A stretch of DNA of 64,000 nucleotides. It comes from Ranitomeya imitator (taxonomy: Eukaryota). The stretch lies in contig NC_091284.1 of assembly GCF_032444005.1 (NCBI RefSeq), forward strand, positions 37,510,001-37,574,000, in the 5' to 3' direction. Each line of letters begins with the position of its first letter. The stretch's first letter is position 1. The notes under the pieces are model-generated. The model did no database searches. It was not told the origin of the DNA and worked only from the letters and a program-made list of their open reading frames with translations. Shown here one piece after another: positions 1,778 to 61,385 of this stretch. A program made the translations under genes and the position numbers.

Positions 1778-1898
1778 CCAAAGGCACGAAGGGAACAGGG
1801 GGGTATACACCACTCAGTAAGGATTTTTTTCGGGCAAGACCTTCAAAACCAAAAGATGCAAAAGGGGAGGGAAATTCACCAAAAAGAAAATAGGGGGT

Positions 1899-30535: not shown

Positions 30536-31764
30536 GTTCTCCACTGTCTCCACTTTCACACTGCTGCAAAAAACGCAGCGCTGCACCTGATCTTACACTT
30601 TTCAGTGATTTATTTCTAGTTTTATTGTTCTCTGGAACTAAAAGATGTCATTTCCTCCTTTTTTTGTAAATATTAAGATACTCTTAGCTCAGAAGGATCG
30701 TTTATATTTCATGAGCACTTCATGGCACAAGGTTTCAGTTCTGTCATTTTTGCCCTTTAACAAGTCCCTGTTACATACAAAGAATATTTTTCCTTAAAAT
30801 AAAACAAAAAATAATACATCATACACTGCTACAGTTTAAGAAACTCTGTAAGTGGAAAGAAGTATTCAAAAGTTATCCCCTATGTGAGGGACTGGGGACA
30901 ATTTGCAGATAGTTGGGGGTCTCACCGCGGCCCCTGGTTCATTCTGATGGGGCATTGGAGAGTCTTTTTCATTTAACACTAAACCACAAGTTAGCACCCA
31001 CACTTTAGAGAAGGGGTTAACTTTAAATGTTGGGAATGACCTAAAAGGGGGGCAGATTACCATGTGTAGACATTTTTAAAGTCACTTTCGCTTGTGGTTG
31101 CGTTTTGTACTTTGCCCCAAATTTATCAAAGAGTTGCAAAAAGTTTTCTAAATTCGGACCACCTTCATATATAATATTCTGTCCAGAGCTGTTTTCCCGC
31201 TTTCTACTCCTCCCATACTAGAGTGAGACTTGTTGACATTTTGTGCAACTTTTTTTTTTGCATAAATCCATCCTAGCATCAGAGGTGTATCTAGGTTTTC
31301 TGGCACATGGGGCAAGAGAAAGAAAAGCTCATTGACACGTGACAGTCAGTATGAAAATCGCATATGAATGACGCGTCCATGTGATGGCTGCTGCCACCTG
31401 CAAGCAGAGCTGAATCCTGACAGTGAGGATATTACACGCTGTTAGGATTGGTTACAGGTCTTCGTTTTATAATTAAAGGGTGCGTCCATGTTTGAGATCA
31501 AAGTCTGCAGTCACTATAGGTGGCTGCAGGCTCCTGAATTCTCACAGTGCATGCACTGCACACTTTTAGGATTCTCCCTTGCCGGTGGCAAGAGTGGACG
31601 TTCATGTCAGCACAAGCATGCCATTTGTATACTTCTGACCACATTCCGACTAGACGTGCCCGAACCTCGCTCAGTTCATTTTCAATTAGTGAGGCCGCGC
31701 ATGTCTAGTCAGCACATGACCGCATGTATGCAAATCGCCAACACCAGAGAATCCTGACAGCGTG

Positions 31765-32888
31765 TGTGACGCCCCAGGGTCTTGCTTGTCGCAGTGACAT
31801 TGCTCTCCTCACGGGGAGGGTGATGTTACGTTTGGAAGCGATGAAGGATCTCTATTATCAGGTAATCACAATGCATACAACATGTTTACACTCCAGGCCA
31901 GAAGGGGGAGCTCTAAGCCTAGTATAGGGTGTACTCCCCTATAAATACATTCTGATCTGGAGGGAAAAGGTTCAGAGAGTTAGACACAGAAGAGAGCAGA
32001 CCGACATAGAGTGTCAGAAGGTCTGAAGGGGCCTGTAGTCAGACGTACTACAGCCCCAGGAGAGAGATATATAGAAGGAAGGAACATCGTTTACTGAGTG
32101 TGCAGGAGAGCGAAGCACAGGAGAGACATCAGGGGAGACCGGCTGTGAATGAACTATCTCCATCTGAACCACAGATCACCGGTAGCCGGGACTCGGATGC
32201 TTTTGTGGGACTCTAAGACACATAGCAGAGACCGGCAGGACAACTGAATTTCAAGTTACCTGTCCACCACACACCTGAAGACACAGTAACACATAGAGCC
32301 CGGGGCGTGATAGAGTCCCTGTAAAAAGGCTCGAGTTACCTGTCATACAGGTATTGTCCTATCCTATATGGGGGACAGAGAGAAGAACTGTGAGGACCTT
32401 ATCTGCAGCCATAGGCAGTAAGGGACTACAACACCACCGTTCTAGAGGAAGGCTTTTAACTCCACCTGGTAAAGGGGACTCTGGATTCGCTTACAAGCCG
32501 GCCGGACCCTGCCTGCCCTGTGATCTGGTACCCTGGACTGTGCCTGCCTGAAGTCTTCAGTAAATCAGGTAAAGAGACTGTAAACCTGTGTCCTCGTTCT
32601 TTACTGCCACCCTTCATGATCTTGCATCTACACACCGGGAGCCCTGGGGATATACTTCACCTGTGGGAAGTTGTACCATCTAGCTGCCATAACATCACCC
32701 CAGAGGACCCCTTAAAGCAACGTCGGTCACCACTGACCGAACAGCACAGGTGGCGACAAGAACATAAACTTCATTCAATTCACCTTTTACATGGGCGCCC
32801 AGGGCCACGGACCAGGTCACCACCGTGACATCCCCCTGTGAACACCGGAGCCGGTACTGGGTACCCCACTGCCCTGGCGGGCGACTCA
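31765..32888 (+). repeat. 5' LTR
   Basis: TGTGACGCCCC...GGCGACTCA. Direct repeat of 43352-44470, roughly 8% different in the first ~170 nt by eye. Confidence 0.95.
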
Positions 32889-33255
32889 TCTTGGCTGACC
32901 CTGAGAATTGGGTCATGTGCTCCTAAAATACTGTGTTGTGCTAAGAAACTGTGCATTGTGAATTGCTGCCAAAACTGCCGCCATTGTAGCGCCACGCGGA
33001 GCGCGAGGGAAGTAGGGACATACAGTACCTTCGTGGGCAGAGCCAGCCGAAAAGAGCGCGAAGCAGTAGGAACGGGTGCCGTGCTGCGTGAGGAACACCG
33101 GAAGTGAAGACGCTGTGCAGCAGGGCCAGAAGGAAAGATGCCGCAAAGTGCTGGATGGAGGACCGGGAACAGCTGCAGACTGCGCAGCGGAGGAATCGCT
33201 ACAAACTCCGGAGGAGAGACGCCGGCCCCTATAAGGTTAGCAAGGGGGAGAAGCT

Positions 33256-34401
33256 ATGTCAGACCAGGGGGGAGAAATGGCGGTGGACGCAGCCGCAGCC
33301 CCTGTGATTCCCCAAGACCTCGGGATGGATGCAGCCGCAGCCCCTGTGATACCCCAAGACCCTGTGGGGGACTCAGCCGCCAGACTCCTGGCACCCCCGG
33401 GCCCCGCCACAGATGCACCTGCAGGCCCAATATTGTCACCAGGCCTCGCAGCTTCTACTCACAGGCCGGACCCCACTGCAGCTACAGCACCCATCATGCC
33501 GCTGTCCATGCCCTATATTCCTGGATCGGCCTGGCTTCCACAATATTCTGGGGAGTCCCATACATTAAGTGACTTTAAAGAAAGGCTATGTAGCCTGTTT
33601 GAAGACTATCCTTTGACCGAGCATCAAAAGGTCAGCATCTTAATTGGACAATTGATAGGCGCAGCCCTAAGAGAAGTGAAATCCTGGCCAAATATGGAAA
33701 AAGGAACTGTGCAGCAGATATTTTCTAAACTTAAAACCACCTTTGACACCCGCACCGCTGCAGAACTCAAAATGAAGTTTTTTGGGTGCAAGCAGAGAGC
33801 ACAGGATAGCATACAGAACTATGCCCTTAATCTCCAGGAGGCACTGTGGGCCGTCAGACAGGTTGACCCTAACAGCAGGCAGGATGGAGACAAGCTCTTA
33901 AAGGTGCAGTTCATTGAGGATCTCCTTGCCAGCACCCACCGGACACAACTGCACATCCTGGCCCTGCAAAACCCTGACCTGGACTTTGCGCAATTTAAGG
34001 ACAGAGCCATCCGGGTGCTGCATGAACCTTAGCCCAGCCACACAGTGCCCCATAGGTGTCCAGCTCTCACGTACCACCAGGAGATGGCATATCATCAGGT
34101 CCCAGTTGAGGTCGACACACAGATCCTGGATGATGACTCTTCCACAGGACTACGCATCCAGGTCCAGGAACTGACTAAAAGCATAGCTGCACTAGCTAAA
34201 ACCATGCAGTCCCTGCAGGAGTCGCCGAAAGAAAAGATCAAGCTGGCTTTCAGACCGGAGGACATACCCTGGCGACGACAGAAGAGGATCCTACCGACCA
34301 GAGGGAGAGACGACGATCGCTATTATTAGGACGGACGACCCATCTGCCGCCTCTGCGACCAGGCAGGACACATTGCAAGGTTCTGTCATTTAAACGAGTG
34401 A
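33256..34401 (+). pseudogene. gag (PNMA-like capsid + CCHC zinc knuckle) with premature stops
   Basis: ORFs 33256-34032 and 34045-34329 are in the same frame, separated by TAG. The knuckle CRLCDQAGHIARFC lies at about 34345-34386. Confidence 0.88.
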
Positions 34402-34447
34402 CCCCTGGGGCAGAGGGCCAACCCCCAGGAATAGGACGACCAGGCCC
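34389..34447 (+). promoter_or_regulatory. -1 programmed ribosomal frameshift signal (slippery site + predicted pseudoknot)
   Basis: T TTA AAC at 34389-34395 is in the gag frame. After an 8-nt spacer comes stem CCTGGGG/CCCCAGG (34404-34410/34423-34429), and loop GGGCC can pair with GGCCC at 34443-34447. pol is in the -1 frame. Confidence 0.78.
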
Positions 34448-35869
34448 ACAAAACTGGCGAGCCAAGTACGTCGGAGGACGTCCAGTCCTCCCAATTGTGA
34501 TCAACGGCATCCCGATGAAAGCTTTATTGGACACCTGTTCTCAGGTGACAACTATATCTTACATTCTATATAAACGGTACTGGGCTGAAACAGACATTAA
34601 TCGTGGCCCAGATGATGATTTGACAATAGTAGCCAGTAACAGTCAGCCGTTGCCACAGGTGGGGCACAAAGAGGTTACCATTAAGGTGGGGCGGGTAGAA
34701 TTGAAGGCCCAAGGAATGGTGATTGTTGATATTGACTGACGCGAACGTAACCCCATGATGACCATTGGTCTGTCTTGCAGAGGTTATTGTCTTATTGCAA
34801 CAGGTGGCCGAAACTGCTGGTTCCAGTGAACAACATGTCCTGCAGAAAGAAATCAGAGCTCTGGTGCAGAGACAGCAGGTAGAACTATCTGGTGGAGAAA
34901 TTGGCCGTGCCACAGTGAGTGATGCAATCCCCATCGCAATACCCCCCAGGAGTGAAATGTTAATATGGTGTCAGGCAACAATAGGCCTCAGAGGTAAAGA
35001 CTACCAGGCTCTGGTAGAACCTCTGTATTCAGATAGTAGGCCCACAATCCTGACAGAGGGGTGGTTGAAGTCCACAAGGGGAGGGTGCCAGTACATGTCC
35101 TTAACTGTGGAGAGAAGGAGGTCCACCTAACCAGATATGCCACAATTGCCAAACTGTTTACTGTTGATAATAATGTGATACAGGCAACAGAACCCTTGGT
35201 CCCATCCAACCAGTCGGAGGACAATGGCTCTGCAGGACAAATGGAAGATTGGTGTCAGAAATTACATGTGGGCACTGATTCTACACCTTCACACCAGAAA
35301 CAAGGGGCTTATCGGGTGGTCCATGAGTATGAGCAAGTATTCAGCGAGCACCCACTAGATTTTGGGCAGGTAAAAGGGATTCAACATCATATCCCCACGG
35401 GAGATCATCCGCCCATTAACCCCTTTACCCCCAAGGGTGGTTTGCACGTTAATGACCGGGCCAATTTTTACAATTCTGACCACTGTCCCTTGGTGAGGTT
35501 ATAACCCTGGAACGCTTCAACGGATCCCAGTGATTCTGACATTGTTTTCTCGTGACATATTGTACTTCATGACAATGGTAAAAATTATTTGATAGTACCT
35601 GCGTTTATTTGTAAAAAAAACGGAAATGTGGCGAAAATTATGAAAATTTTGCAATTTTCCAAATTTGAATTTTTATGCAATTAAATCACAGAGATATGTC
35701 ACACAAAATACTTAATAAGTAACATTTCCCACATGTCTACTTTACATCAGCACAATTTTGGAACCAAAATTTTTTTTTGTTAGGGAGTTATAAGGGTTAA
35801 AAGTTGACCAGCAATTTCTCATTTCTACAACACCATTTTTTTTTAGGGACCACATCTCATTTGAAGTCA

Positions 35870-37860
35870 TTTTGAGGGGTCTATATGATAGAAAATACCC
35901 AAGTGTGACACCATTCTAAAAACTACACCCCTCAAGGTGCTCAAAACCATATTCAAGAAGTTTATTAACCATTCTGGTGCTTCACAGGAATTTTTTGAAT
36001 ATTTAAATAAAAATGAACATTTAACTTTTTTTCACAAAAAATTTAATTCAGCTCCAATTTGTTTTATTTTACCAAGGGTAACAGGAGAAAATGGACCCCA
36101 ATCATTGTTGTACAATTTGTCCTGAGTACGCCAATACCCCACATGTGGGGGTAAACCACTGTTTGGATGCATGGCAGAGCTCGGAAGCGAAGGAGCGCCA
36201 TTTGACTTTTCAATGCAAAATTGACTGGAATTGAGATGGGACGCCATGTTTCGTTTGGAGAGCCCCTGATGTGCCTAAACATTGAAACCCCCCACAAGTG
36301 ACACCATTTTGGAAAGTAGACACCCTAAGGAACTTATCTAGAGGTGTGGTGAGCACTTTGACCCACCAAGTGCTTCACAGAAGTTTATAATGTAGAACCG
36401 TAAAAATAAAAAATCATATTCTTTCACAAAAATTATCTTTTCGCCCCCAATTTTTTATTTTCCCAAGGGTAAGAGAAGAAATTGGACCCCAAAAGTTGTT
36501 GTACAATTTGTCCTGAGTACGCTGATACCCCATATGTGCGGGTAAACCACTGTTTGGGTGGATGGGAGAGCTCGGAAGGGAAGGAGCGCCGTTTGACTTT
36601 TCAATGCAAAATTGACAGGAATTGAGATGGGATGCCACGTTGCGTTTGGAGAGCCACTGATGTGCCCAAACATTGAAACCCCCCCACAAGTGACACCATT
36701 TTGGAAAGTAGACCCCCTAAGGAACTTATCTAGAGGTGTGGTGAGCACTTTGACCCACCAAGTGCTTCACAGAAGTTTATAATGCAGAGCCGTAAAAATA
36801 AAACAAAAAATTTTTCCCACAAAAATTATTTTTTTAGCCCCCAGTTTTGTATTTTCCCGAGGGTAACAGGAGAAAGTGGACCCCAAAATTTGTTGCCCAA
36901 TTTGTCCTGAGTGCGATAATACACCATATGTGGGGGGAACCACTGTTTGGGCGCATGGGAGGGTTCGGAAGGGAAGGAGTGCCATTTGAATGCAGACTTA
37001 GATGGAATGGTCTGCAGGTGTCACATTGCGTTTGCAGAGCCCCTAATGTACCTAAAAAGTAGAAACCCCCCACAAGTGACACCATTTTGGAAAGTAGACC
37101 CCCTAAGGAACTTATCTACATATGTCGTGAGCACTTTGACCCACCAAGGGCTTCACAGAAGTTTATAATGGAGAGCCGTAAAAATAAAACAAACATTTTT
37201 TCCCACAAAAATTATTTTTTAGCCCCCAGTTTTGTATTTTCCCGAGGGTAACAGGAGAAATTGGACCCCAAAATTTGTTGACCAATTTGTCCTGAGTGCG
37301 CTGATACCCCATATGTGGGGGAACCACTGTTTGGGCGCATGGGAGGGCTCGGAAGGGAAGGAGCTCCATTTGGAATGCAGACTTAGATGGAATGGTCTGC
37401 AGGTGTCACATTGCATTTGCAGAGCCCCTAATGTACCGAAACAGTAGAAACCCCCCACAAGTGACACCATTTTGGAAACTAGACCCCCTAAGGAACTCAT
37501 CTAGATGTGTTGTGAGAACTTTGAACCCCCAAGTGTTTCACTACAGTTTATAACGCAGAGCCGTGAAAATAAAAAATCTTTTTTTTTTCCCACAAAAATT
37601 ATATTTTAGCCCCCAGTTTTGTATTTTCCCAAGGGTAACAGGAGAAATTGGACCCCAAAAGTTATTGTCCTATTTGTCCTGAGTACACTGATACCCCATA
37701 TGTTGGGGTAAACCCCTGTTTGGGCACACGGGAGAGCTCGGAAGGGAAGAAGCACTGTTTTACTTTTTCAACGCAGAATTGGCTGGAATTGAGATCGGAC
37801 GCCATGTCGCGTTTGGAGAGCCCCTGATGTGCCTAAGCAGTGGAAACCCCCCAATTATAG
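35870..37860. repeat. ~385-392-bp tandem repeat, about 5 units
   Basis: The anchor GTGACACCATTTTGG occurs at 36298, 36690, 37076 and 37461. Confidence 0.92.
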
Positions 37861-37863
37861 CTG

Positions 37864-38039
37864 AAACCCTAATCCAAACACACCCCTAACCTAACCCTAA
37901 TCCCAACAGTAACCCTAACCACACCTCTAACCCTGACACACCCCTAACCCTAATCCCAACCCTATTCCCAACTGTAAATGTAATCTAAACCCTAACTGTA
38001 ACTTTAGCCCCAACCCTAACCCTAACTTTAGCCCCAACC
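37864..38039. repeat. Degenerate (CCCTAA)n-like tract
   Basis: CCCTAACCCTAA motifs mixed with CTTTAGCCCCAA, running into the assembly gap. Confidence 0.85.
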
Positions 38040-38286
38040 NNNNNNNNNNNNNNNNNNNNNNNNNNNNNNNNNNNNNNNNNNNNNNNNNNNNNNNNNNNNN
38101 NNNNNNNNNNNNNNNNNNNNNNNNNNNNNNNNNNNNNNNNNNNNNNNNNNNNNNNNNNNNNNNNNNNNNNNNNNNNNNNNNNNNNNNNNNNNNNNNNNNN
38201 NNNNNNNNNNNNNNNNNNNNNNNNNNNNNNNNNNNNNNNNNNNNNNNNNNNNNNNNNNNNNNNNNNNNNNNNNNNNNNNNNNNNNN
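38040..38286. other. Assembly gap (247 N)
   Basis: N run. Confidence 1.
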
Positions 38287-41200
38287 GGAAATAAATACAT
38301 TTTTTTAATTTTTCCCTAACTAAGGGGGTGATGAAGGGGGGTTTAATTTACTTTTATAGCGGGTTTTTAGCGGATTTTTATGATTGGCAGCCGTCACACA
38401 CTGAAAGACGCTTTTTATTGCAAAAAATATTTTTTGCGTTACCACATTTTGAGAGCTATAATTTTTCCATATTTGAGTCCACAGAGTCATGCGAGGTCTT
38501 GTTTTTTGCGGGATGAGTTGACGTTTTTATTGGTAACATTTTCGGGCACGTTACATTTTTTGATCGCTTTTTATTCCGATTTTTGTGAGGCAGAATGACC
38601 AAAAACCAGCTATTCATGAATTTCTTTTGGGGGAGGCGTTTATACCATTCCGCGTTTGGTAAAATTGATAAAGCAGTTTTATTCTTCGGGTCAGTACGAT
38701 TACAGCGATACCTCATTTATATTATTTTTTTATGTTTTGGCGCTTTTATACGATAAAAACTATTTTATAGAAAAAATAATTATTTTTGCATCGCTTTATT
38801 CTCAGGACTATAACTTTTTTATTTTTTTGCTGATGATGCTGTATGGCAGCTTGTTTTTTGTGGGACAAGATGACGCTTTCAGCGGTACCATGGTTATTTA
38901 TATCTGTCTTTTTGATCGCGTGTTATTCCACTTTTTGTTCGGCGGTATGATAATAAAGCGTCGTTTTTTGCCTCGTTTTTTATTTTTTTTCTTACGGTGT
39001 TTACTGAAGGGGTTAACTAGTGGGCCAGTTTTATAGGTTGGGCCGTTACGGACGCAGCGATACTAAATATGTGTACTTTTATTGTTTTTTTTTTTATTTA
39101 GATAAAGAAATGTATTTATGGGAATAATATATATATTTTTTTTCCATTATTTAGGAATATTTTATTTAATTATTTTTTTTACACATTTTGAAATTTTTTT
39201 TAAAACTTTTTTACATTGTCCCAGGGGGGGACATCACAGATCGGTGATCTGACAGTTTGCACAGCACTCTGTCAGATCACCGATCTGAGAGCAGTGCAGG
39301 CTGCTTCACAGTGCCTGCTCTGAGCAGGCACTGTGAAGCCACCTCCCTCCCTGCAGGACCCGGATCCGCGGCCATCTTGGATCCGGGTCTGGAGCAGGCA
39401 GGGAGGGAGGTAAGACCCTCGCAGCAACACGATCACATCGCGTTGCTGCGGGGGGCTCAGGGAAGCACGCAGGGAGCCCCCTCCCTGCACCGCCGGCACA
39501 TCGCGATCATGTTTGATCGCGGTGTGCCGGGGGTTAATGTGCCGGGAGCGGTCCGTGACCGCTCCTGGCACATAGTGCCGGATGTCAGCTGCGATAGACA
39601 GCTGACACCCGGCCGCGATCGGCCGCGCTCCCCCCGTGAGCGCCACCGATCGCGCTGGACGTACTGTCCCGTCCGTGGTCATAGGGGCCCACCCCACCTC
39701 GACGGGATAGTACGTCCGATGTCAGAAAGGGGTTAAGGAGAGATACCGGCCTGTACCTCCAGCTCACTATCAGTGTGCCAAAGACATGTTACGATAGATG
39801 AAAGAGGCTGGGGTAATCAGAGATAGTTGTAGCCTCTTGGCAGCTCCATTAGTCCTCGTCAGGAAAAAGGATGGCACAATGAGAATGTGTGTTGATTATA
39901 GGCAGATAAACAGTATAACACACAAAGATGCATACCCATTGCCTAGAATAGAGTCCTTAGCTGCTTTAAAATATGCTAACTACTTCTTTACCTTGGATCT
40001 CATCAGTCGGTACTGGCAGGTTCCTGTGGCAGAGGCGGATAAGGAAAAGATGGCCTTCATCACACCGATGGGTCTCTGTGAATTCAACTACATGCCGTTC
40101 GGACTGTGCAACGCACCAGGAACATTTCAGAGGATGATGGAGTGCTGTCTTGGGCACAAGAATTTCGAAACCGTCTTGCTGTATCTGGACGATGTCATCG
40201 TCTTCTCCAAGACTTATAAGGACCATCTGAAGCACCTGACAAAGGTGTTTGAAGCCCTGTCCAACTTTGACTTGAAGGTAAAACCATCTAAATGTCACCT
40301 GTTGAAACCCAAAGTGCAGTACCTGGGCCGTGTGGTAAGCCCCGAAGGAGTGGCACCAGACCCTGACAAGGTCACCGTGATCAAGAACTGGCCAAAGCCC
40401 CGCAACCTCCATGAAGTCCGGCAGTTCCTCGGGTTGGTAGGCTACTACAGAAGATTTATCAAAGACTTCACCAAGATAGCCACACCACTACAAGGCCTGT
40501 TAGTGTGCCAATCCAAGAAAACCAAGGGTAAGAATACCCCTTTTGACTGGGACGACGGGCTGGAGAGAACCTTCACTCGATTGAAGTTGACTCTCACGGG
40601 AGATGAGGTACTCGCTTGCCTTGAATATAACCAACTGTTTGTGCTGTACACGGATGCCAGCAACATGGGACTGGGAGCTGTGTTGTTCCTGGTACAGAAA
40701 GGCAAGGAAAGGGTAATTGCTTACGCCAGCAGGAAGCTTCGCCCTACAGAATGGAACCCTGAAAATTATAGTTCCTTTAAGCTGGAGTTCCTCGCCATCG
40801 TCTGGGCAGTAGCAGAGAGGTTCAAGCAGTACCTGGCAAAATTCACAGTCTACACCGCTGACTCACCTGGAGACGGCAAAACGCAAAACTAGGTGCTTTG
40901 GAGCAGCGTTGGATGGCCCGCTTGTCCAACTATGAATTCACCATCAAGTACTGTGCAGGGCACAAGAATGCCAATGCCAATGCGATGTCCAGGATGCCCA
41001 ACCTACCAGATGTGGAAGAGGATTCAGAGGAACCTGAACAGGTAGAGTTACGAGCTTTCCATCGCCCTAAGGCAACTCAGTATTCCCATTATGTGAGGAA
41101 CAGGCACAGAAACAAGCAAGAATGCACGCTGAACCCATTGCCCCACCATGGGCGGGCAGAGACACAGGACAGTGACCCCGCGGTCCATCTGGTCAAGGAG

Positions 41201-43351
41201 CTGCTGACGCAAGCCAATTCGCACCCTGGTTCAGATGCTCCACAAGAGACTCAACAGCTGTGGAAAGAGAAAGGCAAACTGTTTATGTACGATGGTAAGC
41301 TGTGTCGGAGGAGTATTGACCCACGCGCTCACGAGCTGGTCTGGCAGATAGTGGTCCCAAAACAAGATGAGCCAATGGTTCTGGAAGCGTACCATGATGG
41401 AGCAGGACACTTTGGATGGAAGAATTTAGAGACCCTACTTCGTGGAAGGTTCTCCTGGATTGGCATAAGGAAAGCCATCAAAAAGTGGTGCCTAGAGTAT
41501 GGCCCATGTAGCTTGTGCAGAAAGGACCATAACAGCCAGAGGGCTCCCCTGCAGGCCATAGTTACCAAACATTCGCTTGAACTGGTTGCCTTAGACCATG
41601 TGAAGCTAACTCCAAGCCGGTCAGGCTATGTCTAAGCTTTGACTATTCTGTACCATTACTCCAGATTCCTGGTAGCCGTACCTATCAAGGACCAGACAGT
41701 AAAGACGGCAGCCAAAGCCTTTCAACAGCACTTCTGTAGACCACATGGATATCCTGAAAAAGTGCTTACTGACCAAGGACCAGCCTTTGAAGCGGAAGTA
41801 TTTCAAGAATTCTGCAACCTATATGGATGCAAAAAGATCAGAACAACTCTGTACCACCCACAAACCAACGGTATGTGCGAATAGATGAACCAAGTAGTGA
41901 TTTACTTACTGAAGACCTTGCCTTTACATGAAAGGAACTTATAGCCAGACATGTTGCCAGACTTGGTAGACTTGTATAACCACATCCCAGTGAATTCCAC
42001 CAACTGCACTCCAGCTTACCTGATGAGAGGAAGATCTTGTAAACTGCCAGTTGATCTAGACATGGGAGTCCTGACCCCAGAAAATACCTCACCAGATGCA
42101 GATTGGGATACTGAGAGATGACAAAAGTACCGCCAAGTACAAGAGTGCATTGAAAGAAGTCTATCACAAGCGAGACAAAAGCAAGAAAGAGACTATAACC
42201 AATGTGCCCCTGCAATCCCCTTGTCACCAGGTGAACAAGTACTAAAAAGTAAGAGAAGACTACACAAACTTGATGACCAGTGGGAAGCAGAACCGTATAC
42301 TATCCTACGTTCAAACTGTGACAACACGAAAGTCTGCGTTATCAGCAAAGATCGAGGAGAAACTTCAACTGCAGTATCCAGAGACCATCTCAAAGTATGC
42401 CCTGATAAACTGAGGAACAAAGAAACAGACCCAGAAACATCTCCACCCATGGAAGAAGAAGAAAAGAGAATTCACACCGTTCTTGAAGATTTTCCCCAGT
42501 CTTGGACTCAAGTACATCAGGCCACAGTGATACCTGTCTTGACTTTTCGCCAGCTGGAAATACCAGAACAAAATGTGATTTCAGACCATCCTGAACCAAA
42601 AGAGACTTTACACCAGCAGGCTCCAGCAGTAAACGTCACCCCAGCAGTGGAACCAGAGAATCCACCCTCTGCTATTGGTGAATCTGTCAGACCTATGGTG
42701 AATCTAAGAAGACGTAGACTCTTCCCCAGTTTACCAATACAATGCAGGCCTACAAGTAGTACACACACTAGTGGGTCCACTAAAGTAACAGCAGACATGT
42801 TAGATTAGGAACTACGCAGGTCTACCCATAGTACCAAAGGTCAAATCCCAGCTCGTTACAGGGACTAAAAATGTCAATAATTCCTGTTACCGGTTTGAAT
42901 TGCTTGCTTACATTTGTTACAAGTTTAAAATGGACAATAGGGTAATGGACAGTGAATTACCCAAAAACTGTATTTGTACATAGTTGGCACCCTCAAGGTG
43001 CACCCTGGTTCTAACCACTTACCGGTGTGGGTAGGTCCTTGTTTGCTTGTTTCTTCACAGACCCGAAGCAAAACCATCTGGCGTGGCGAACCCTGGCTCT
43101 GGATACGCCTGGTAGCCCACCCAAGCCTACATTGGGGGTTATGATGGGTCCCTCGCATTGGTACTTTCATTTATAAACAAGGACACGCTGGTATAAGACC
43201 AGATGTACTTTTATAAACTTGTTTTTGCAATGTTTAAGCATCAATACCTCCCATAAAGGGAAGCCAAAGTTTTATAATTGTTTCAATGTGTTTTTCAAAA
43301 ATGTTTTTCAAAATGTTCCCATTATTTAACTGGATTTAACGCGGGGGGGAG

Positions 43352-45671: not shown

Positions 45672-45961
45672 GGTCTAAGAGTTAACGTTTCTCCTTATGG
45701 AGAGTGACATACCAGCTCTGGCTTGTCAAGGTAAGGAGGCTTATTCGCCGTGCAATGCTCCTCTGGGAAATTTAATATGCAAATTGCCTCTTCAGAGAAA
45801 AAGAGGACTTAAACTCTATAGCGCCACCTGTTGGAAGTAGTGATCTTACAAGTCACAATCAACCCTTTGCAATATGACTTAGGATAAAAGCCAAATCAGT
45901 ATCTCAATTCGCAGACACATTGTTTCGGCTGTTGGCCCTCATCAGTGCAAAGCATGAGAAC
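45672..45961 (-). mobile_element. Retrozyme / satellite-2-like non-coding module (hammerhead + octamer + CTCF motif), copy 1
   Basis: Hammerhead at 45908-45951, ATGCAAAT at 45777-45784, CCAACAGGTGGCGCTA (minus strand) at 45819-45834. No ORF. Confidence 0.72.
45908..45951 (-). ncRNA. Type I minimal hammerhead ribozyme
   Basis: Minus strand TTTGCA-CTGATGA-G-GGC(caaca)GCC-GAAA-CA(atg)TG-TC-TGCGAA. 6-bp stem I, short stems II and III, GUC cleavage between 45914 and 45913. Confidence 0.82.
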
Positions 45962-45989
45962 CGTGTCTGTGAATTAAGATACTGAGATA

Positions 45990-46246
45990 GACTGTAATGC
46001 GTTGTTTTGACGCACTCCTTCCGCAAGCGTCCGCATGCGTATGGCGGCGGAAATTTGACACCTCAAAACTTGCAACATGGTGCGTTAGCTGCGCCCAGCC
46101 GCACACCGCGAAAATACGCATGTGTAAGCAAACGTGGGCGAATGCATGCAAACCTGCATCTACAATGTTAAAGATATGAAATCAAGACGCATGCGGATGT
46201 ATGCATCAGAAACGTTGCGGACACAACCGCAAATGTGAAACCAGCC
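45990..46246. mobile_element. Right half of a Harbinger-type MITE inside the Tc1 (copy 2 at about 52238-52494)
   Basis: Ends GTGAAACCAGCC|TAA. No matching left end. Confidence 0.6.
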
Positions 46247-49200
46247 TAAGTCACATATTGTCCATTTCCTTGTGATCCTCGTTGAGATGGTTCTGCTCCT
46301 TCATTGAAGTCCAGCTGTGTTTAATTAAACTGATAGAACTTGATTTGGAAAGGCGCACACCTGTCTATATAAGACCTCACAGCTCACAGTGCATGTCAGA
46401 CCAAATGAGAATCATGAGGTCAAAAGAACTGGCCGAGGAGCTCAGAGACAGAATTGTGGCAAGGCACAAATCTGACCAAGATTACAACAGAATTTCAGCA
46501 GTACTCAAGGTTCCTAAGAGCACAGTGGCCTCCATATTCCTTAAACGATAAAAGTTTGGGACCACCAGAAGTCTTCCTAGACCTGGCTGTCCAGCCATAC
46601 TGAGCAATGGTGGGAGAAGAGCCTTGGTGAGAGAGGTAAAGAAGAACCCCAAGATCACTGTGGCTGAGCTCCAGAGATGCAGTAGGGAGATGGGACAAAG
46701 TTCCACAAAGACAATTATCACTGCAGCCTCCACCAGTCGGGCCTTTATGGCCGACGGAAGCCTCTCCTCAGTGCAAGACGTATGAAAGCCTTCATAGAGT
46801 TTGCTAAAAAAAACACATGAAGGACTCCCAGACTATGAGAAATAAGATTCTTTGGTCTGATGACATGAAGATAGACCTTTTTGGTGATAATTCTAAGCGG
46901 TATGTGTGGAGAAAACAGGCACTGCTCATCACCTGCCCAATACAATCCCAGCAGTGAAACATGGTGGTGGCAGCATCATGCTATGGGGGTGTTTTTCAGC
47001 TGCAGGGACTGGAGGACTGGTTGTCATTGAAGGAAACATGAACGTGGCCAAGTACAAAGATGTCCTGGATGAAAACCTCTTCCAGAGTGCTCTGGACCTC
47101 AGACTTGGCCTTCCAACAAGACAATGGCCCTAAGCACACAGCTAAAATAACAAAGGAGTGGCTTCAGAACAACTCTGTGACCATTCTTGACTTGCCCAGC
47201 CAGAGCCCTGACCTAAACCCAATTGAGCATCTCTGGAGAGACCTGAAAATGGCGTCCACCAAGTTCACCATCCAACCTGATGGAACTGGAGAGGATTCGC
47301 AAGGAAGAATAGCAGAGGATCCCCAAATCCAGGGGTGAAAAACTTGTTGCATCATTCCCAAGAGGACTCATGGCTGTACTAGCTCAAAAGGGGCTTCTAC
47401 CCAATACTGAGCTAAGGGTCTGAATACTTATGACCATGGGATATTTCAATTTTTCTTTTTTAATAAAATTGGAAAAATGACTACATTTCTGTTTTTTTTC
47501 TGTCAAGATGGGGTGCAGAGTGTACATTAATGAGAAAAAAATGAACTTTTTTGAATTTACCAAATGGCTGCAATGAAACAAAGAGTGAAAATTTTACAGG
47601 GGTCTGAATACTTTCCGTACCCACTGTAAATCCCACCCCCAGTCTATCCCACATTGAATAAATTCCCACCACACACTTAATAAATCCCCCCCGCACGCTG
47701 AAAAAAATACCCCCCACACACTGAATAAATCCCCCCACACACTGAATAAATCCCCTCACATACACTGAATAAATCCCCTCACACACACTGAATAAATCCC
47801 CTCACATACACTGAATAAATCCCCCCACACACTGAATAAATCCCCTCACATACACTGAATAAATCCCCTCACACACACTGAATAAATCCCCTCACACACT
47901 GAATAAATCCCCCCCACTCACTGAATAAATCCCCCCCCTACTCACTGAATAAATCCCCCCCACTCACTGAATAAATCCCCTCACACACACTGAATAAATC
48001 CCCCCACACACTGAATAAATCCCCCCCTGACTCACTGAATAAATCCCCTCACACACACTGAATAAATCCCCCCCACTCACTGAATAAATCCCCCCACTCA
48101 CTGAATAAATCCCCTCACACACACAGAATAAATCCCCCCACTCACTGAATAAATCCCCCCACTCACTGAATAAATCCCCTCACACACACTGAATAAATCC
48201 CCCCCACTCACTGAATAAATCCCCCCACTCACTGAATAAATCCCCTCACACACACTGAATAAATCCCCTCACACACACTGAATAAATCCCCTCACACACA
48301 CTGAATAAATCCCCCCCACTCACTGAATAAATCCCCCCCACTCACTGAATAAATCCCCCCCAACTCACTAAATAAATCCCTTCACACACACTGAATAAAT
48401 CCCCCCCCACTCACTGAATAAATCCCCCCACTCACTGAATAAATCCCCCCTCAATCACTGAATAAATCCTCTCCACACACACTGAATAAATCCCCTCACA
48501 CACACTGAACAAATTCCCCCACACACACTGAATAAATCCCCCCACACACTGAATAAATCCCCTCACACACACTGAATAAATCCTCCCCACACACACTGAA
48601 TATATCCCCCCCACACACTGAATAAATCCCCCCCACACACTGAATAAATCCCCCCACACACACTGAATAAATCCTCCCCAAACACTGAATAAATCCCCCC
48701 CACACACACTGAATAAATCCCCCCCACACACACTGAATAAGCCCTCCCCACACACACTGAATAAATCCCCCCACACACACTGAATAAATCCTCCCCACAC
48801 ACACACTGAATAAATTCCCCCCAACTCACTGAATAAATTCCCCCACATACACTAAATAAATCCTCTCCACACACACTGAATAAATCCCCACACACTCACT
48901 GAATAAATTCCCCCCCACACACTGAATAAATCCCCTCACACACTGAATACATTCCCACCCACTCACTGAATAAATTCCCCCACACACTGAATAAATTCCC
49001 CCACACACTGAATAAATTCCCCCACACACACTGAATATATTCCCCCCACACACTGAATAAATCCCCCACACACACTGAATAAATCTCCCCACACACTGAA
49101 TAAATCCCCCTCACACACTGAATAAATCCCCCCACACACACTGAATAAATCCTGCCCAAACACTGAATAAATCCCCCCCACACACACTGAATAAATCCTC

Positions 49201-51919
49201 CCCACACACACTGAATAAATCCCCCCCCACACACTGAATAAATCCTCCCCACACACACTGAATAAATCCCCCACACACACTGAATAAATCCTAGCCACAC
49301 ACACTGAATAAATCTCCCCACACACACTGAATATATCCCCCCCACACACTGAATAAATCCCCCCACACACACTGAATAAATCTCCCCACACACTGAATAA
49401 ATCCCCCCCCACACACACTGAATAAATCCCCCCACACACACTGAATAAATCCACCCCAAACACTGAATAAATCCCCCACACACACACTGAATAAATCCCC
49501 CCCCACACACTGAATAAATCCTCCCCAAACACTGAATAAATCCCCCCACACACACTGAATAAATCCTCCCCACACACACTGAATAAATCCTCCCCACACA
49601 CACTGAATAAATCCCCCCACACACACTGAATAAATCCTCCCCACACACACTGAATAAATCCCCCCACACACACTGAATAAATCCTCCCCACACACACTGA
49701 ATAAATTCCCCCCCAACTCACTGAATAAATTCCCCCACAGACACTGAATAAATTTCCCCACACACACTGAATAAATCCCCACACAAACTGAATAAATCCC
49801 CCCACACATACACTGAATAAATCCTCCCAACACACATTGAATAAATCCCCACACACTCACTGAATAAATTCCCCCACACACACTGAATAAATCCCCTCAC
49901 ACACTGAATAAATTTCCACCCACTCACTGAATAAATTCCCCCCCACACTCTGAATAAATTCCCCTACACACACTGAATAAATTCCCCCACACACACTGAA
50001 TAAATTCCCCCACACACACTGAATAAATCCCCCCACACACTGAATAAATCCCCCCACACACGCACTGAATAAATCCCCACACACACTGAATAAATCCCCT
50101 CACACACACTGAATAAATCCCCTCACACACACTGAATAAATCCCCCCCCACACACTGAATAAATCCCCCCACTCACTGAATAAATTCCCCCACACACACT
50201 GAATAAATTCCCCCACACACACTGAATAAATCCCCCCACACACTGAATAAATCCCCTCACACACACTGAATAAATCCCCCTACACACACTGAATAAATCC
50301 CCACACACACTGAATAAATCCCCTCACACACACTGAATAAATCCCCTCACACACACTGAATAAATCCCCCCCACTCACTGAATAAATCCCCTCACACACA
50401 CTGAATAAATCCCCTCACACACACTGAATAAATTCCCTCACACACACTGAATAAATCCCCTCACACACACTGAATAAATCCCCCCCACTCACTGAATAAA
50501 TCCCCACACACACTGAATAAATCCCCTCACACACACTGAATAAATCCCCTCACACACTGAATAAATCCCCCCACTCACTGAATAAATCCCCCCCACTCAC
50601 TGAATAAATCCCCTCACACACACTGAATAAATCCCCTCACACACAATGAAAAAAATTCCCCCTCACACACTGAATAAATCCCCCCTCACACACTGAATAA
50701 ATCCCCCCTCACACACTGACCAGATCCTCCTCCACACACATTGAATAATCATCCCCCCTACACTAAGGCTAATTCCACAACTCTTGCCCCGGGTATATCG
50801 CATGCGGAATTGGCATGCATTTTCCCGCTAAACATTAGCGTTTTGCAAGCGTAATTAGCTTACAGAATGCCAGCGTTTTCCAAGCGATCTGAAGCATCGC
50901 TTGGAAAGGTGATTGACAGGTTGGTCACACTTGTCAAACAGAGTGTTTGACAAGTGTGACCAAATTTTTACTATTGATGCTGCCTATGCAGGATTAATAG
51001 TAAAAAGATCTAATGTTAAAAATAATAAAAAAAATAAAAAAAATGGTTATTCTCACCTTCCAACGGCCCCCGATCTCCTCAGCGGTGCATGCGGCGGCTT
51101 CCGTTCCCAGAGATGCTGTGTGCGAAGGACCTGGGATGACGTCATGTGACCGCGATGTCATCGCAGGTCCTTCGCATACAGCATCCCTGGGAACGGAAGG
51201 CCACAATTCTGCAAATTAATGAACATGCGTTTTTTTCTGGAATGCGTTTCCGCTCAGCAAAAAAAAGGCAACATGTGCACAAAATTTGCGGATTGCATTC
51301 TAATAATGGAATGCTTAATGTATGCGTTTTTTTGCGGTTTTATCGCGTTTTTATAGCAAAAAAAAAAGCCATCACCCCACTCACCTCCAACAGAATACAT
51401 CCACCTCCTTCCAGACAGAATAAATCTGTCTCCCTCCACTCAGAATAAATCCATCCACCTCCACACAGAATAAATGCACCCCCCCATACACACACTGAAT
51501 AAATCCCACAAACACATTAAATAAATCCCTCTCACACACTGAATAAATCCCCAAACACACACTGAATAAATCCCCCACACCCACTGAATAAATCCCCCTA
51601 CTCACACTGAATAAATCCCCCCAGATACACTGAAAAAATCCCCCACACACATACTGAATAAATTCCCCACACACGCACTGAATAAATTCTCCACACACAC
51701 TGAATAAATCCCCCCACACACACTGGATACATTCCCCACACTGAATAAATCCCCCACACACTGAACAAATTTCCCACACACACTGAATAAATCCCCCCCC
51801 ACACACGGAATACAGTGGGTACGGAAAGTATTCAGGCCCCTTTAAATTTTTACTCTGTTTCATTGCAGCCATTTGGTAAATTCAAAAAAGTTCATTTTTT
51901 CTCATTAATGTACACTCTG

Positions 51920-52209
51920 GGTCTAAGAGTTAACGTTTCTCCTTATGGAGAGTGACATACCAGCTCTGGCTTGTCAAGGTAAGGAGGCTTATTCGCCGTG
52001 CAATGCTCCTCTGGGAAATTTAATATGCAAATTGCCTCTTCAGAGAAAAAGAGGACTTAAACTCTATAGCGCCACCTGTTGGAAGTAGTGATCTTACAAG
52101 TCACAATCAACCCTTTGCAATATGACTTAGGATAAAAGCCAAATCAGTATCTCAATTCGCAGACACGTTGTTTCGGCTGTTGGCCCTCATCAGTGCAAAG
52201 CATGAGAAC
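51920..52209 (-). mobile_element. Retrozyme-like module, copy 2
   Basis: Near-identical to 45672-45961. Confidence 0.72.
52156..52199 (-). ncRNA. Type I minimal hammerhead ribozyme, copy 2
   Basis: As above, with stem III loop ACG. Confidence 0.82.
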
Positions 52210-55200
52210 CGTGTCTGTGAATTAAGATACTGAGATAGACTGTAATGCGTTGTTTTGACGCACTCCTTCCGCAAGTGTCCGCATGTGTATGGCGGCGGAA
52301 ATTTGACACCTCAAAACTTGCAACATGGTGCGTTAGCTGCGCCCAGCCGCACACCGCGAAAATACGCATGTGTAAGCAAACGTGGGCGAATGCATGCAAA
52401 CCTGTATCTACAATGTTAAAGATATGAAATCAAGACGCATGCGGATGTATGCATCAGAAACGTTGCGGACACAACCGCAAATGTGAAACCAGCCTAAGTC
52501 ACATATTGTCCATTTCCTTGTGATCCTCCTTGAGATGGTTCTGCTCCTTCATTGAAGTCCAGCTGTGTTTAATTAAACTGATAGAACTTGATTTGGAAAG
52601 GCATCTGTCTATATAATACCGCACAGATCACAGTGCATGTCAGCCCAAATGAGAATCATGAGGTCAAAAGAACTGGCCGAGGAGCTCAGAGACAGAATTG
52701 TGGCAAGGCACAAATCTGACCAAGGTTACAACAGAATTTCAGCAGTACTCAAGGTTCCTAAGAGCACAGTGGCCTCCATATTCCTTAAACGATAAAAGTT
52801 TGGGACCACCAGAAGTCTTCCTAGACCTGGCTGTCCAGCCATACTGAGCAATGGTGGGAGAAGAGCCTTGGTGAGAGAGGTAAAGAAGAACCCCAAGATC
52901 ACTGTGGCTGAGCTCCAGAGATGCAGTAGGGAGATGGCACAAAGTTCCACAAAGACAATTATCACTGCAGCCTCCACCAGTCGGGCCTTTATGGCCGACG
53001 GAAGCCTCTCCTCAGTGCAAGACGTATGAAAGCCTTCATAGAGTTTGCTAAAAAAAACACATGAAGGACTCCCAGACTATGAGAAATAAGATTCTTTGGT
53101 CTGATGACATGAAGATAGACCTTTTTGGTGATAATTCTAAGCGGTATGTGTGGAGAAAACAGGCACTGCTCATCACCTGCCCAATACAATCCCAGCAGTG
53201 AAACATGGTGGTGGCAGCATCATGCTATGGGGGTGTTTTTCAGCTGCAGGGACTGGAGGACTGGTTGTCATTGAAGGAAACATGAACGTGGCCAAGTACA
53301 AAGATATCCTGGATGAAAACCTCTTCCAGAGTGCTCTGGACCTCAGACTTGGCCTTCCAACAAGACAATGGCCCTAAGCACACAGCTAAAATAACAAAGG
53401 AGTGGCTTCAGAACAACTCTGTGACCATTCTTGACTTGCCCAGCCAGAGCCCTGACCTAAACCCAATTGAGCATCTCTGGAGAGACCTGAAAATGGCGTC
53501 CACCAAGTTCACCATCCAACCTGATGGAACTGGAGAGGATCCGCAAGGAAGAATAGCAGAGGATCCCCAAATCCAGGGGTGAAAAACTTGTTGCATCATT
53601 CCCAAGAAGACTCATGGCTGTACTAGCTCAAAAGGGGCTTCTACCCAATACTGAGCAAAGGTCTGAATACTTATGACCATGGGATATTTCAATTTTTCTT
53701 TTTTAATAAAATTGGAAAAATGACTACATTTCTGTTTTTTTTCTGTCAAGATGGGGTGCAGAGTGTACATTAATGAGAAAAAAATGAACTTTTTTGAATT
53801 TACCAAATGGCTGCAATGAAACAAAGAGTGAAAATTTTACAGGGGTCTGAATACTTTCCGTACCCACTGTAAATCCCACCCCCAGTCTATCCCACATTGA
53901 ATAAATTCCCACCACACACTTAATAAATCCCCCCCGCACGCTGAAAAAAATACCCCCCACACACTGAATAAATCCCCCCACACACTGAATAAATCCCCTC
54001 ACATACACTGAATAAATCCCCTCACACACACTGAATAAATCCCCTCACATACACTGAATAAATCCCCCCACACACTGAATAAATCCCCTCACATACACTG
54101 AATAAATCCCCTCACACACACTGAATAAATCCCCTCACACACACTGAATAAATCCCCTCACACACTGAATAAATCCCCCCCACTCACTGAATAAATCCCC
54201 CCCACACTCACTGAATAAATCCCCCCCACTCACTGAATAAATCCCCTCACACACACTGAATAAATCCCCCCACACACTGAATAAATCCCCCCCCGACTCA
54301 CTGAATAAATCCCCTCACACACACTGAATAAATCCCCCCCACTCACTGAATAAATCCCCCCACTCACTGAATAAATCCCCTCACACACACTGAATAAATC
54401 CCCCCACTCACTGAATAAATCCCCCCACTCACTGAATAAATCCCCTCACACACACTGAATAAATCCCCCCCACTCACTGAATAAATCCCCCCCCAACTCA
54501 CTGAATAAATTCCCTCACACACACTGAATAAATCCCCCCCACTCACTGAATAAATCCCCCCACTCACTGAATAAATCCCCCCACACACACTGAATAAATC
54601 CCCCCCACACACTGAATAAATCCTCCCCAAACACTGAATAAATCCCCCCCACACACACTGAATAAATCCCCCCCACACACACTGAATAAACCCTCCCCAC
54701 ACACACTGAATAAATCCCCCACACATACACTGAATAAATCCCCACACACACACTGAATAAATCCTCCCCACACACACTGAATAAATTCCCCCACACACTG
54801 AATAAATTCCCCCACACACACTGAATAAATCTCCCCACACACTGAATAAATCCCCCACACCCTGAATAAATCCCCCCACACACACTGAATAAATCCTCCC
54901 CAAACACTGAATAAATCTCCCACACACACACTGAATAAATCCCCCCACACACTGAATAAATCCTCCCCACACACACACTGAATAAATCCCCCCACAGACA
55001 CTGAATAAATCCCCCCCACACACACTGAATAAATCCCCCCACACACACTGAATAAATCCCCCCACACACACTGAATAAATCGCCTCACACACACTGAATA
55101 AATCTCCCCACACACACTGAATAAATCCTAGCCACACACACTGAATAAATCTCCCCACACACACTGAATATATCCCCCCCACACACTGAATAAATCTCCC

Positions 55201-55795
55201 CACACACTGAATAAATCCCCTCCACACACTGAATAAATCCCCCCACACACACTGAATAAATCCTCCCCAAACACTGAATAAATCCCCCACACACATACTG
55301 AATAAATCCCCCCACACACACTGAATAAATCCTCCCCACACACACTGAATAAATTCCCCCCCAACTCACTGAATAAATTCCCCCACAGACACTGAATAAA
55401 TTCCCCCACACACACTGAATAAATCCCCCCACACACACTGAATAAATTCCCACCCACTCACTGAATAAATTCCCCCACACACTGAATAAATTCCCTCACA
55501 CACACTGAATAAATTCCCCCACACACACTGAATAAATTCCCCCACACACACTGAATAAATCCCCTCACACACACTGAATAAATCCCCCCCACTCACTGAA
55601 TAAATCCCCCCACTCACTGAATAAATCCCCCCACTCACTGAATAAATCCCCCCACACTGAATAAATCCCCTCACACTGAATAAATCCCCTCACACACACT
55701 GAATAAATCCCCCCTCACACACTGAATAAATCCCCCCTCACACACTGACCAGATCCTCCTCCACACACTTTGAATAATCATCCCCCCTACACTAA

Positions 55796-56418
55796 GGCTA
55801 ATTCCACAACTCTTGCCCCGGGTATATCACATGCGGAATTGGCATGCGTTTTCCCGCTAAACACTAGCGTTTTGCAAGCGTAATTAGCTTACAGAATGCC
55901 AGCGTTTTCCAAGCGATCTGAGGCATCGCTTGGAAAGGTGATTGACAGGTTGGTCACACTTGTCAAACAGAGTGTTTGACAAGTGTGACCAAATTTTTAC
56001 TATGTAGCATCAATAGTAAAAAGATCTAATGTTAAAAATAATAAAAAAATTAAAAAATGGTTATTCTCACCTTCCAACGGCCCCCGATCTCCTCACGTGA
56101 CCGTGATGTCATCGCCGGTCCTTCGCTCACAGCATCCCTGGGAACGGAAGACGCCGCGTGCACCGCTGAGAGGTGGGAGGATCAATGCATTCCTATATGT
56201 GCGGAATCCCCACGATTCCGCAAATTAATGAACATGCTGCGTTTTTTTCCGGAATGCGTTTCCGCTCAGGAAAAAAATGCAACATGTGCACAAAACTTGC
56301 AGATTGGATTCTAATAATGGAATCCTTAATGTATGCCTTTTTTCCGATGGTTTTATCTCTTTTTTATAGCGAAAAAACGCAAAAAAATGCGAAAAATCCG
56401 GAACATGAGCACACACCC
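55796..56418. mobile_element. Harbinger-type MITE, probably chimeric (truncated duplicate at 50767-51370)
   Basis: TAA on both sides. The left end GGCTAATTCCACA and right end GAGCACACACCC come from different families. Contains a 20-bp perfect hairpin TTGGTCACACTTGTCAAACA-gag-TGTTTGACAAGTGTGACCAA. Confidence 0.65.
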
Positions 56419-57562
56419 TAAATCTTCAGCTCCTCACCAACATGAGCACTTATCACCGACTCTCTTCTGCGCCTCGGGGAGTGACGTCAGCAGCTGCTGG
56501 TGTCACTCTGACCTGGCGGTCAGAGCTTCAATTGTACTCGCGTTTGTAAGATGTGAGGACAATTGATCTCTGGGAGCCGGCACTGTGCAGCTTCTCTGTT
56601 TCTGCTGTCAGCTTCACAGCCGGCTCAGAGAACTGTAGACTCCCAGTCTGGGGGGCGGCAGAATGGAGCCGCTGGGGCAGACACTTCTGACTGCCGCATT
56701 AAACGGCCCTACTGCGCCCCCTATCAGCTGCCCTCTCCTACCCTAGACACACCTCTGCCTAGCATAGCTAACCATACCCACTGGAAAATGCTGGCTTTGG
56801 CACAAAATAAATGTTGTTGCAAAAATGACGAAAGAAAATTTGCAACTTTTTAATGCCGAAGACTGGTGTAAAATACTTTATATTTTTATAGTTCACATTC
56901 TTAAAACCCTTGGTCTGGATGAGCAGTGGTTTAATTGGAGGCTGTTATTGCTGAATGGCAACTAGCGTAGCAGAGTTATGCAGAACAAATTCAGTGGCAA
57001 GGAACTGGTGTCGAAAAATTGAGTTACATAGGAGGTTCTAAGGTATAGCTAGTCTGGTGAAGTGGCAGAGAAGTTTGCAGCAGAACTGAGTTTGCAGCTA
57101 AGTACAATGCAGAGCTTGCAAATTGGTACCATGAAGTTGACACAATATAGTTGTCATACCAGTGACTCGCACGGTTTATAGCCATTGTCCTACTCACTGT
57201 GTGCAACGCTCTGCTCCTCACAGTGTCAAGCCATCTTGCTGAGCACTGCTGTATTTTGGTGTTGCTCTAGAATCTCCACCCAGCTATAGGGAGGTGCAGC
57301 CAGACTCTGCAGGAATTTAAAACCACTATGTTTTTCAGAGTTTTGCTTCCCTGGCCTATACTCTGCTAGCAGGCAGGTCCTACCTTCACACGTTGCCAAA
57401 GCTTAGGTCCTAGTTACAGTTTGAATCTACATCCCTGATAAGGTGCTTTATTGTTTCATCTCTCCTGTTACCGACCCGGCTTCCTTACTCATTTTGTCTG
57501 ACCTCTTCACTCCTTTCTATTCTGAACCTGTGCCAACCACCCCAACCTCAGACTTCCTGACA

Positions 57563-60589: not shown

Positions 60590-61385
60590 TCATGGTCCCA
60601 TAGTCTTCCATACAGTATTATGGGCACCACATAGCCCTCCATACAGTATTATGGGCACCATATAGTTCTCCATACAGTATAATGGACACCACATAGTCCT
60701 CCATACAGTGTAATGTACCCTATATATTGCTCCATACAGTATAATAGAGCCCATAAATTGCTCCATACAGTATAATGAGCCCCATATATTGCTCCATACA
60801 GAATAATGGGCCCTATGTAATGCTCCATGCAGAATAATGGACCCCACATAGTGCTCCATACTGAATAATGGGCACGATATAATGCTCCATAAAGAATAAT
60901 GGAGCCCATATATTGCTCCATACAGAATAATTGCCCCATATAATGCTCCATACAAAATAACTGGCCCATATGCTGCTCCATACAGTATAATGAGCCCCAT
61001 ATAGTGTTCCATACAGTATAATGAGCCCCATATATTGCTCCATACACAATGGACCCTAAATAATGCTCCATACAGAATATTGGGCCCCATATAATGCTCC
61101 ATACAGAATGGGCCCCATATAATGCTCCATACAGAATATTGGGCTCCATTTAGTGCTCCATACAGAATGGGCCCCATATAATGCTCCATACAAAATAATT
61201 GGCCCCATATATTGCTATATACAGAATAATGAGCCCCATATATTGCTCCATACAGAATGGGCCTCATATAATGCTTCATACAGAATGGGCCCCAAATAAT
61301 GCTCCATACAGTATAATGAATAATAATAAAGAATAACGGACCCCAAATATAGCTTTATGCAGTATAATGAGCCCCATATATTGCT
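60590..61385. repeat. ~30-33-bp minisatellite (CCCCATATATTGCTCCATACAGTATAATGAG)n with hAT-MITE-like flanks
   Basis: Direct reading. The flanks at 60360-60412 and 61650-61722 are GGGCCCC-rich subterminal-like sequence. Confidence 0.9.

Follow-up and report, generated by a model that had tools for sequence, protein, structure and literature searches.

A 25.5-kb nest of transposable elements in Ranitomeya imitator that probably grew in place inside a decayed non-autonomous hAT element

In maize, non-autonomous hAT elements of the Ds type have been enlarged by later insertions, up to 24 kb for Ds1 and up to 12.7 kb for Ds2, and long terminal repeat (LTR) elements are found inside seven Ds-l3 and 35 Ds-l4 elements (PMC3260210; this and the other articles are cited from excerpts of their text). 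Ds-l elements that share little past their terminal inverted repeat (TIR) are not excised by Ac (PMC3260210). A review of giant eukaryotic transposons, whose excerpted text does not mention hAT or nested elements as whole words, describes a transposition efficiency that falls above ~6 kb of cargo and the artificial movement of 100-200 kb (PMC6431247). The cargo capacity of Tol2 is ~200 kb (PMC8151067). The locus described here lies in a window of 64,000 nucleotides, the whole stretch of DNA that was analysed (Ranitomeya imitator, assembly GCF_032444005.1, contig NC_091284.1, positions 37,510,001 to 37,574,000 of the forward strand; coordinates below count from its first letter). It contains a 25.5-kb stretch that is a real, accurately bounded nest of transposable elements (TEs) inside a decayed non-autonomous hAT element, hereafter the host. 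With a probability of about 0.9, the host is an old member of a non-autonomous hAT family 2-3 kb long that inserted once, lost subterminal motifs and grew in place to 25.5 kb, and it is likely immobile. Literature searches returned no paper on this locus or its family, which may already be catalogued in Repbase or Dfam.

The nest is delimited by an 8-bp target site duplication (TSD), CCTAGCAT, whose left (31272-31279, +) and right (56758-56765, +) copies match at 8/8 positions. Directly inside the pair are inverted 16-bp TIRs that match at 15/16 positions and span 25,478 bp (31280-56757). These values, given in an initial annotation made from the letters alone, were reproduced by re-measurement and by the family copies described below. 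The left TIR (31280-31295, +) is the same as the left TIR of the family, and the right one (56742-56757) is 3 sites off the common family TIR and 2 off an older variant. The host is split into three segments, all on the + strand. The left segment (31280-31764) corresponds to family nucleotides (nt) 1-38 and ~155-605, with a ~120-bp subterminal deletion at 31317. The middle segment (44471-45564) is colinear with family nt ~595-1850, carries several private deletions and runs into a native 23-bp satellite. The right segment (56422-56757) begins after an insert resembling a miniature inverted-repeat transposable element (MITE) and has a ~25-bp deletion inside the right TIR. The 8-bp TSD, the short TIR (16 bp, where 10-25 bp are expected) and ends common to a transposase-bearing hAT identify a non-autonomous hAT; the window copy is without transposase sequence.

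The family was defined by searching the 5.96-Gb assembly with the left and right host segments, the DNA searches scoring the best 40 candidates. Matches to the two segments are numerous (4,200 and 1,678 first-look candidates) and paired 2-3.5 kb apart. Both TIRs and an own 8-bp TSD (at most one mismatch) were present in 15/20 and then in 8/20 fetched loci, a total of 23/40; the other 17 loci, without a TIR pair plus TSD, were excluded from motif counts. Complete copies measure 2,021-6,861 bp and are colinear with window positions 31280-31766, 44474-45564 and 56423-56757, which fixes the boundaries of the nest without an orthologue. TRF detected the 23-bp satellite in 15/15 complete copies of the first fetched set, and its length accounts for the size range of the family. 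The satellite, listed as cargo in the initial annotation, is thus present but native to the host family. The size bound for a MITE in the strict sense is ~1 kb. Such elements are uniform, high in copy number and non-coding; this family is high-copy and non-coding, but it ranges over 2.0-6.9 kb and varies through its internal satellite, and it is better called a non-autonomous hAT. One old family copy (C4:642,702.6 kb) lies just 3' of an apparent KRAB-type exon, recognised by eye only.

The window copy is far more diverged than its relatives. Its identity to 15 family copies is 84.7, 80.3 and 81.0% in the three segments, compared with 95.9, 96.0 and 94.4% among those copies themselves, and its Kimura two-parameter (K2P) distance is 0.159 against 0.034 for the family. 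The closest match to a host segment among the best 40 candidates scored reaches 87%. Private deletions are many and include ~120 bp past left nt 38 and ~25 bp immediately inward of the right TIR, the latter taking out a GGGGCA(T/G)TGCCCC-type subterminal palindrome. Three of four conserved subterminal motifs are missing in the window copy: CCCGGGGC and AGTTYGGCGCC, each kept in 21/23 family copies, and GGGGCATKTGCCCC, kept in 22/23; all three are found in 3/3 transposase-bearing relatives. The fourth motif is retained. These motifs are presumably transposase-binding sites. A hAT end needs a further 100-200 bp past its TIR, and subterminal repeats are important in Tol2 excision (PMC10368747). 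The ends had been described as near-intact; relative to family copies just the 16-bp tips remain, with the subterminal DNA deleted on both sides, and the window copy can likely no longer be mobilised.

Four junction patterns (left deletion, both Gypsy/host junctions, right deletion-plus-TIR) each have one match in the 5.96-Gb assembly with 2-3 mismatches allowed, and a DNA search with the sequence around the left Gypsy junction gave, among the best 40 scored, one match that spans it. The test proposed in the initial annotation for cargo movable as one unit, namely a second locus with the same junctions and other flanks, thus found none: the composite has not been copied elsewhere and no spread as a unit was seen. 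The right flank is single-copy, and none of 14 matches to the left flank is near-identical. An empty site was also sought in paralogues of the old repeat that surrounds the nest. The left flank matches 13 other loci at 70-91%; the right flank clearly continues in 1/13 (L084, z 5.9) with hints in L082 and L088, a weak signal.

The site is shared with organism B, a related organism represented by public DNA runs from one sample of one study; runs X7-X10, which contain almost none of the sequence words, were left aside. In 3/3 runs a 1,054-nt contig bridges the right TSD with 163 nt of the element and ~800 nt of flank; it differs from window 56595-57559 at 107 positions (~11% divergence), and the 25-bp motif is not among the listed indels. 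A left contig (3/4 runs) holds flank and 20 nt of the element with 35 differences in 384, which is suggestive only. None of the listed contigs of organism B with unique flank spans 31764/31765. An empty-site orthologue was not found, organism B already carrying the insertion. Differences between organism B and the window (142/1344, 10.6%, the aligned length on the right side being approximate) exceed those between the two LTRs of the nested Gypsy element (71/1116 sites, 6.4%; Fisher p = 2e-4). Given similar rates and no conversion between LTRs, the host therefore likely landed at its present site before Gypsy arrived. Since the other inserts are nested or younger, the composite likely never transposed.

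The proposed history starts with the insertion of the host hAT, which would be older than the separation of the organism B lineage (~10% divergence). Gypsy would then have entered the host (LTRs 6.4% apart) and the piggyBac-type insert would have entered Gypsy pol. A Tc1 (TIRs ~2% apart) with a retrozyme piece inside, and a MITE, would have been in place before a tandem duplication (~1%) that came last; satellite expansion would also be part of the growth. The initial annotation proposed in-place growth of a small hAT MITE. The growth is supported by the family, the boundaries, an empty Gypsy site and the order of events, although the host lacks the size and uniformity of a MITE in the strict sense.

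The decayed Gypsy-type LTR retrotransposon (31765-44470, +) has TG...CA termini, LTRs at 31765-32888 and 43352-44470 and a 4-bp TSD, CGTG, at 31761-31764 and 44471-44474. Its gag and pol are broken by stops and by the TTAA insert. Protein fragments are gag-like or resemble protease (PR), reverse transcriptase (RT), RNase H (RH) and the integrase (IN) zinc-binding domain, all in broken frames; the TG...CA LTRs, the short TSD and the order PR-RT-RH-IN assign it to Ty3/Gypsy. At the corresponding position the family paralogue L020 has GACAG-CGTG-CAGTG, where CGTG occurs once; this is an empty Gypsy site, which bears out both the provirus and the rejoining of host sequence across its TSD. PiggyBac elements have a TTAA TSD and CCC...GGG ends. 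A non-coding insert with these features (35420-39732, strand undefined) lies inside Gypsy pol and contains a 385-bp tandem array (36065-37853) and AACCCT-like repeats. Its exact TIR is just 7 bp and it is without transposase; independent copies exist, the same element being found with both ends at a different position in the family copy L110, which confirms the piggyBac-type assignment. As a separate observation, an LTR of the window's Gypsy family recurs at intervals of ~16-60 kb in arrays on several chromosomes (C4:348.20-348.54 Mb, C6:326.51-326.61 Mb, C9:67.28 Mb; similar match clusters at C6:255.5 and C5:237.3), and 8/9 of the loci checked share one insertion site. The C4 348-Mb stretch is dense in LTR elements, and one gag-like frame there carries a Macro domain and a zinc knuckle.

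Downstream of Gypsy, a decayed Tc1 (45565-47626, +) with a TA TSD and ~107-bp TIRs 98% alike lies inside the satellite. It has HTH_SB and DDE_3 fragments: 3/5 fragments of its broken transposase match HTH_SB, HTH_Tnp_Tc3_2 or DDE_3. Inserted in this Tc1 is a ~290-bp retrozyme-like piece (45671-45961, -) of a high-copy tandem family with a ~332-bp period, to which it matches at 90-92%. Type I hammerhead cores are located at 45923-45945 and 52171-52193 (both -). The match to Rfam HH9 scores 16.4 bits, a weak value beside the gathering score of 52, the predicted minimum free energy fold differs from a hammerhead (z -1.28), and Rfam at gathering thresholds gave no match in the whole window. The 23-bp satellite, expanded here, follows with 137 copies (47650-50763, +), then a 3'-truncated TAA-flanked MITE copy (50767-51374, strand undefined) that ends at the duplication junction. 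The second unit (51375-56380, +) of this tandem duplication of 45126-51374 contains the second Tc1 (51813-53869), the second of the two hammerhead cores and satellite (53893-55792). A TAA-flanked MITE-like insert with degenerate TIRs (55796-56418, strand undefined) comes next, and the host resumes 3' of it; the alignment of these TIRs is unconvincing. K2P between the units is 0.008-0.019 outside the satellite and 0.008 between the Tc1 copies. The tandem duplication and the TAA-flanked MITE are thus both present, as are the two Tc1s and two hammerheads that had been counted, but each of the latter is a single insertion doubled by the ~1%-diverged duplication.

That the 6.2-kb duplication is an assembly artefact of two haplotypes, with a true element of ~19-20 kb, is unlikely. 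Its units differ by 0.8-1.9%, near allelic divergence, across a long satellite; against this, the break point falls within the MITE, and the sequence beyond it is again host DNA from before the satellite. The MITE copies (51078-51364 and 56076-56380) also point away from two haplotypes: their first 240 bp are ~98% alike, but each has lost a different arm of the hairpin inside the MITE, and further downstream they diverge by several per cent, which exceeds the divergence elsewhere in the duplication. This unevenness may reflect gene conversion or a template switch.

Movement of the composite as a unit would involve a transposase in trans. A search of the genome with the PF14291 (DUF4371) profile gave 142 matches, of which 20 were fetched wide and 30 narrow, so that a closer partner than those presented here may exist. 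Two loci stand out. L192 (C7:98,217,579-98,223,645) is 6,067 bp long with a TSD of 8/8 and an 830-amino-acid (aa) frame containing DUF4371 and Dimer_Tnp_hAT domains, in which we take D/D/E, CxxH and RW motifs to be present; L169 (also L191; C1:424,990,099-424,996,341) is 6,243 bp long with a TSD of 8/8. They are ~99% alike and their frames (829-830 aa) have 823 identical residues. Their ends match the host family at 84-86% over the first ~65 bp and 82-84% over the last ~80 bp, the region of family nt 148-561 matches at 74%, and they also hold an internal 23-bp satellite. The shared ends and nt 148-561 make it likely that the host family arose by internal deletion from a Tip-like hAT lineage of the DUF4371 type, transposase-bearing members of which persist in the genome. 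L192/L169 are a candidate recently active partner of the non-autonomous family, and a transposase able to act in trans plausibly exists. A generic TIR/TSD scan of the 20 wide DUF4371 loci found pairs in two, both from other families. A young 892-aa hAT family (13 copies, 99.1% alike) was rejected as partner: its end is just ~75% like that of the host and its copies share upstream flank. This young multi-copy hAT (L135-L156, e.g. C1:204.38 Mb and C1:642.82 Mb; frames of 892-911 aa) has at least three copies with a common upstream flank beyond the apparent left TIR, and a unit larger than the apparent TIR span seems to have spread.

It is very improbable that such a transposase has moved the whole 25.5-kb composite by cut-and-paste or still does so. 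In favour are the perfect TSD and 15/16 TIR, the precedents for large hAT cargo (PMC3260210, PMC8151067), and the transposase-bearing elements, whose TSDs are intact, whose ends are 82-86% similar and which include an 830-aa frame. All tested junctions are single-copy, the site is common to organism B and older than the divergence of the Gypsy LTRs, and both ends have lost conserved subterminal motifs. Past movement of the composite is largely refuted, and of the idea that a hAT transposase in trans could move the 25-kb cargo, the transposase half has gained a candidate while the movable unit is unsupported.

Several points weigh on the other side, against growth in place of an immobile host. 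In maize, nested retrotransposons totalling ~100 kb were carried along by an Ac/Ds macrotransposon, and some Ds1 elements move without canonical subterminal repeats (PMC3260210); neither motif loss nor size therefore strictly excludes movement. The candidate transposase with matching ends is present in two copies ~99% alike. The TSD is perfect and the left TIR intact despite 15-20% divergence, which is plausible by chance for 16 bases, yet unexpected. A subfamily closer to the window copy could be missed when the best 40 candidates are scored. The left contig of organism B reaches just 20 nt into the element, below a 31-letter bar, and one sample of one study stands for this organism. Gene conversion between LTRs could make Gypsy seem younger. 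There is a slim chance that the 16-bp TIRs and the remaining motif suffice for a recently active transposase, the 25-kb nest being excisable or relocatable, for example in rare germline or somatic events unfixed in the assembly. Size alone is no bar to movement; history and ends argue against it. That the TIR/TSD pair is a coincidence of separate fragments or belongs to two neighbouring copies would fit the 25 kb of mostly unrelated DNA between the ends and the abundance of the family, but is next to negligible, since the three host segments are colinear with single family copies at similar divergence (80-85%), the host picks up again precisely on the far side of the Gypsy TSD and of the MITE, CCTAGCAT occurs just 3 times on the + strand of the 64-kb window, and the flanks join into one old repeat in 1/13 paralogues (z 5.9).

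The window contains other elements outside the nest. A Penelope-like element (10-5384) has 1,759-nt inverted repeats 100% alike and looks very young. It contains a GIY-YIG match (1166-1813, -) and two cores that resemble hammerheads, one at 468-497 (-) and one at 4897-4926 (+). The Tc1 at 6061-7689, with HTH and DDE_3 fragments, belongs to another family than the nested Tc1, to which it is 67% identical in nucleotides. Satellite arrays at 17617-24476 (52/53/73/125-bp higher-order units) and 60600-61318 (31-bp unit) are possibly internal to other non-autonomous elements.

The nest is ordinary for a repeat-rich genome. Older family copies (L109, L110) hold their own, differing inserts; those of L109 include an LTR from the same Gypsy family as the one in the nest. 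One partner-family copy (L212, L214, L215; C4:88,255,705-88,307,307) measures 51.6 kb between TIRs with a TSD of 7/8. There a hAT contains a 44.5-kb TTAA-flanked piggyBac (TIR 16/17, 558-aa DDE_Tnp_1_7 frame), which contains a Gypsy and, within it, a further large insert (20 of 44.5 kb read); the innermost insert has ~3.6-kb inverted arms of 535-bp tandem repeats, 98% alike. Nesting is thus routine and the size of the window element not unusual. The locus is a well-dated case of repeat-rich genome growth, from an immobile 2-3-kb element to 25 kb via nesting, satellite expansion and duplication, of use for TE annotation and dating and without new biology; it has also, usefully, linked an abundant non-autonomous family to a candidate autonomous partner. 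If the ends were functional it would matter, because documented cases of hATs naturally moving tens of kb of foreign TE DNA come mainly from maize macrotransposons.

Among described systems, maize Ds and Ds-like elements are alike in being non-autonomous hATs with an 8-bp TSD swollen by later insertions (PMC3260210). The window element differs in being from an animal, in its 16-bp TIR and native internal satellite, and in a multi-superfamily cargo with a tandem duplication. The Ac/Ds macrotransposon, in which hAT ends move nested retrotransposon DNA, is how the mobility proposed in the initial annotation would work (PMC3260210); in that system two functional elements supply the ends and transposition has been seen, whereas the window has one decayed element without a moved copy. 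The candidate parent resembles the hAT Tip group (BuT2/Tip100) in having DUF4371 and Dimer_Tnp_hAT, like BuT2, and this group shares with the window family a short TIR, an 8-bp TSD and non-autonomous derivatives keeping both ends (PMC3942097); the likeness is one of domain content, and the window copy is without transposase sequence. Amphibian non-LTR retrozymes are tandem families of ~330 bp with a type I hammerhead whose helix III is very short (PMC7229834), a description that the piece with the hammerhead core would fit. Unlike them, the window piece is a sub-monomer passenger in a Tc1, with a candidate core whose Rfam score is below threshold.

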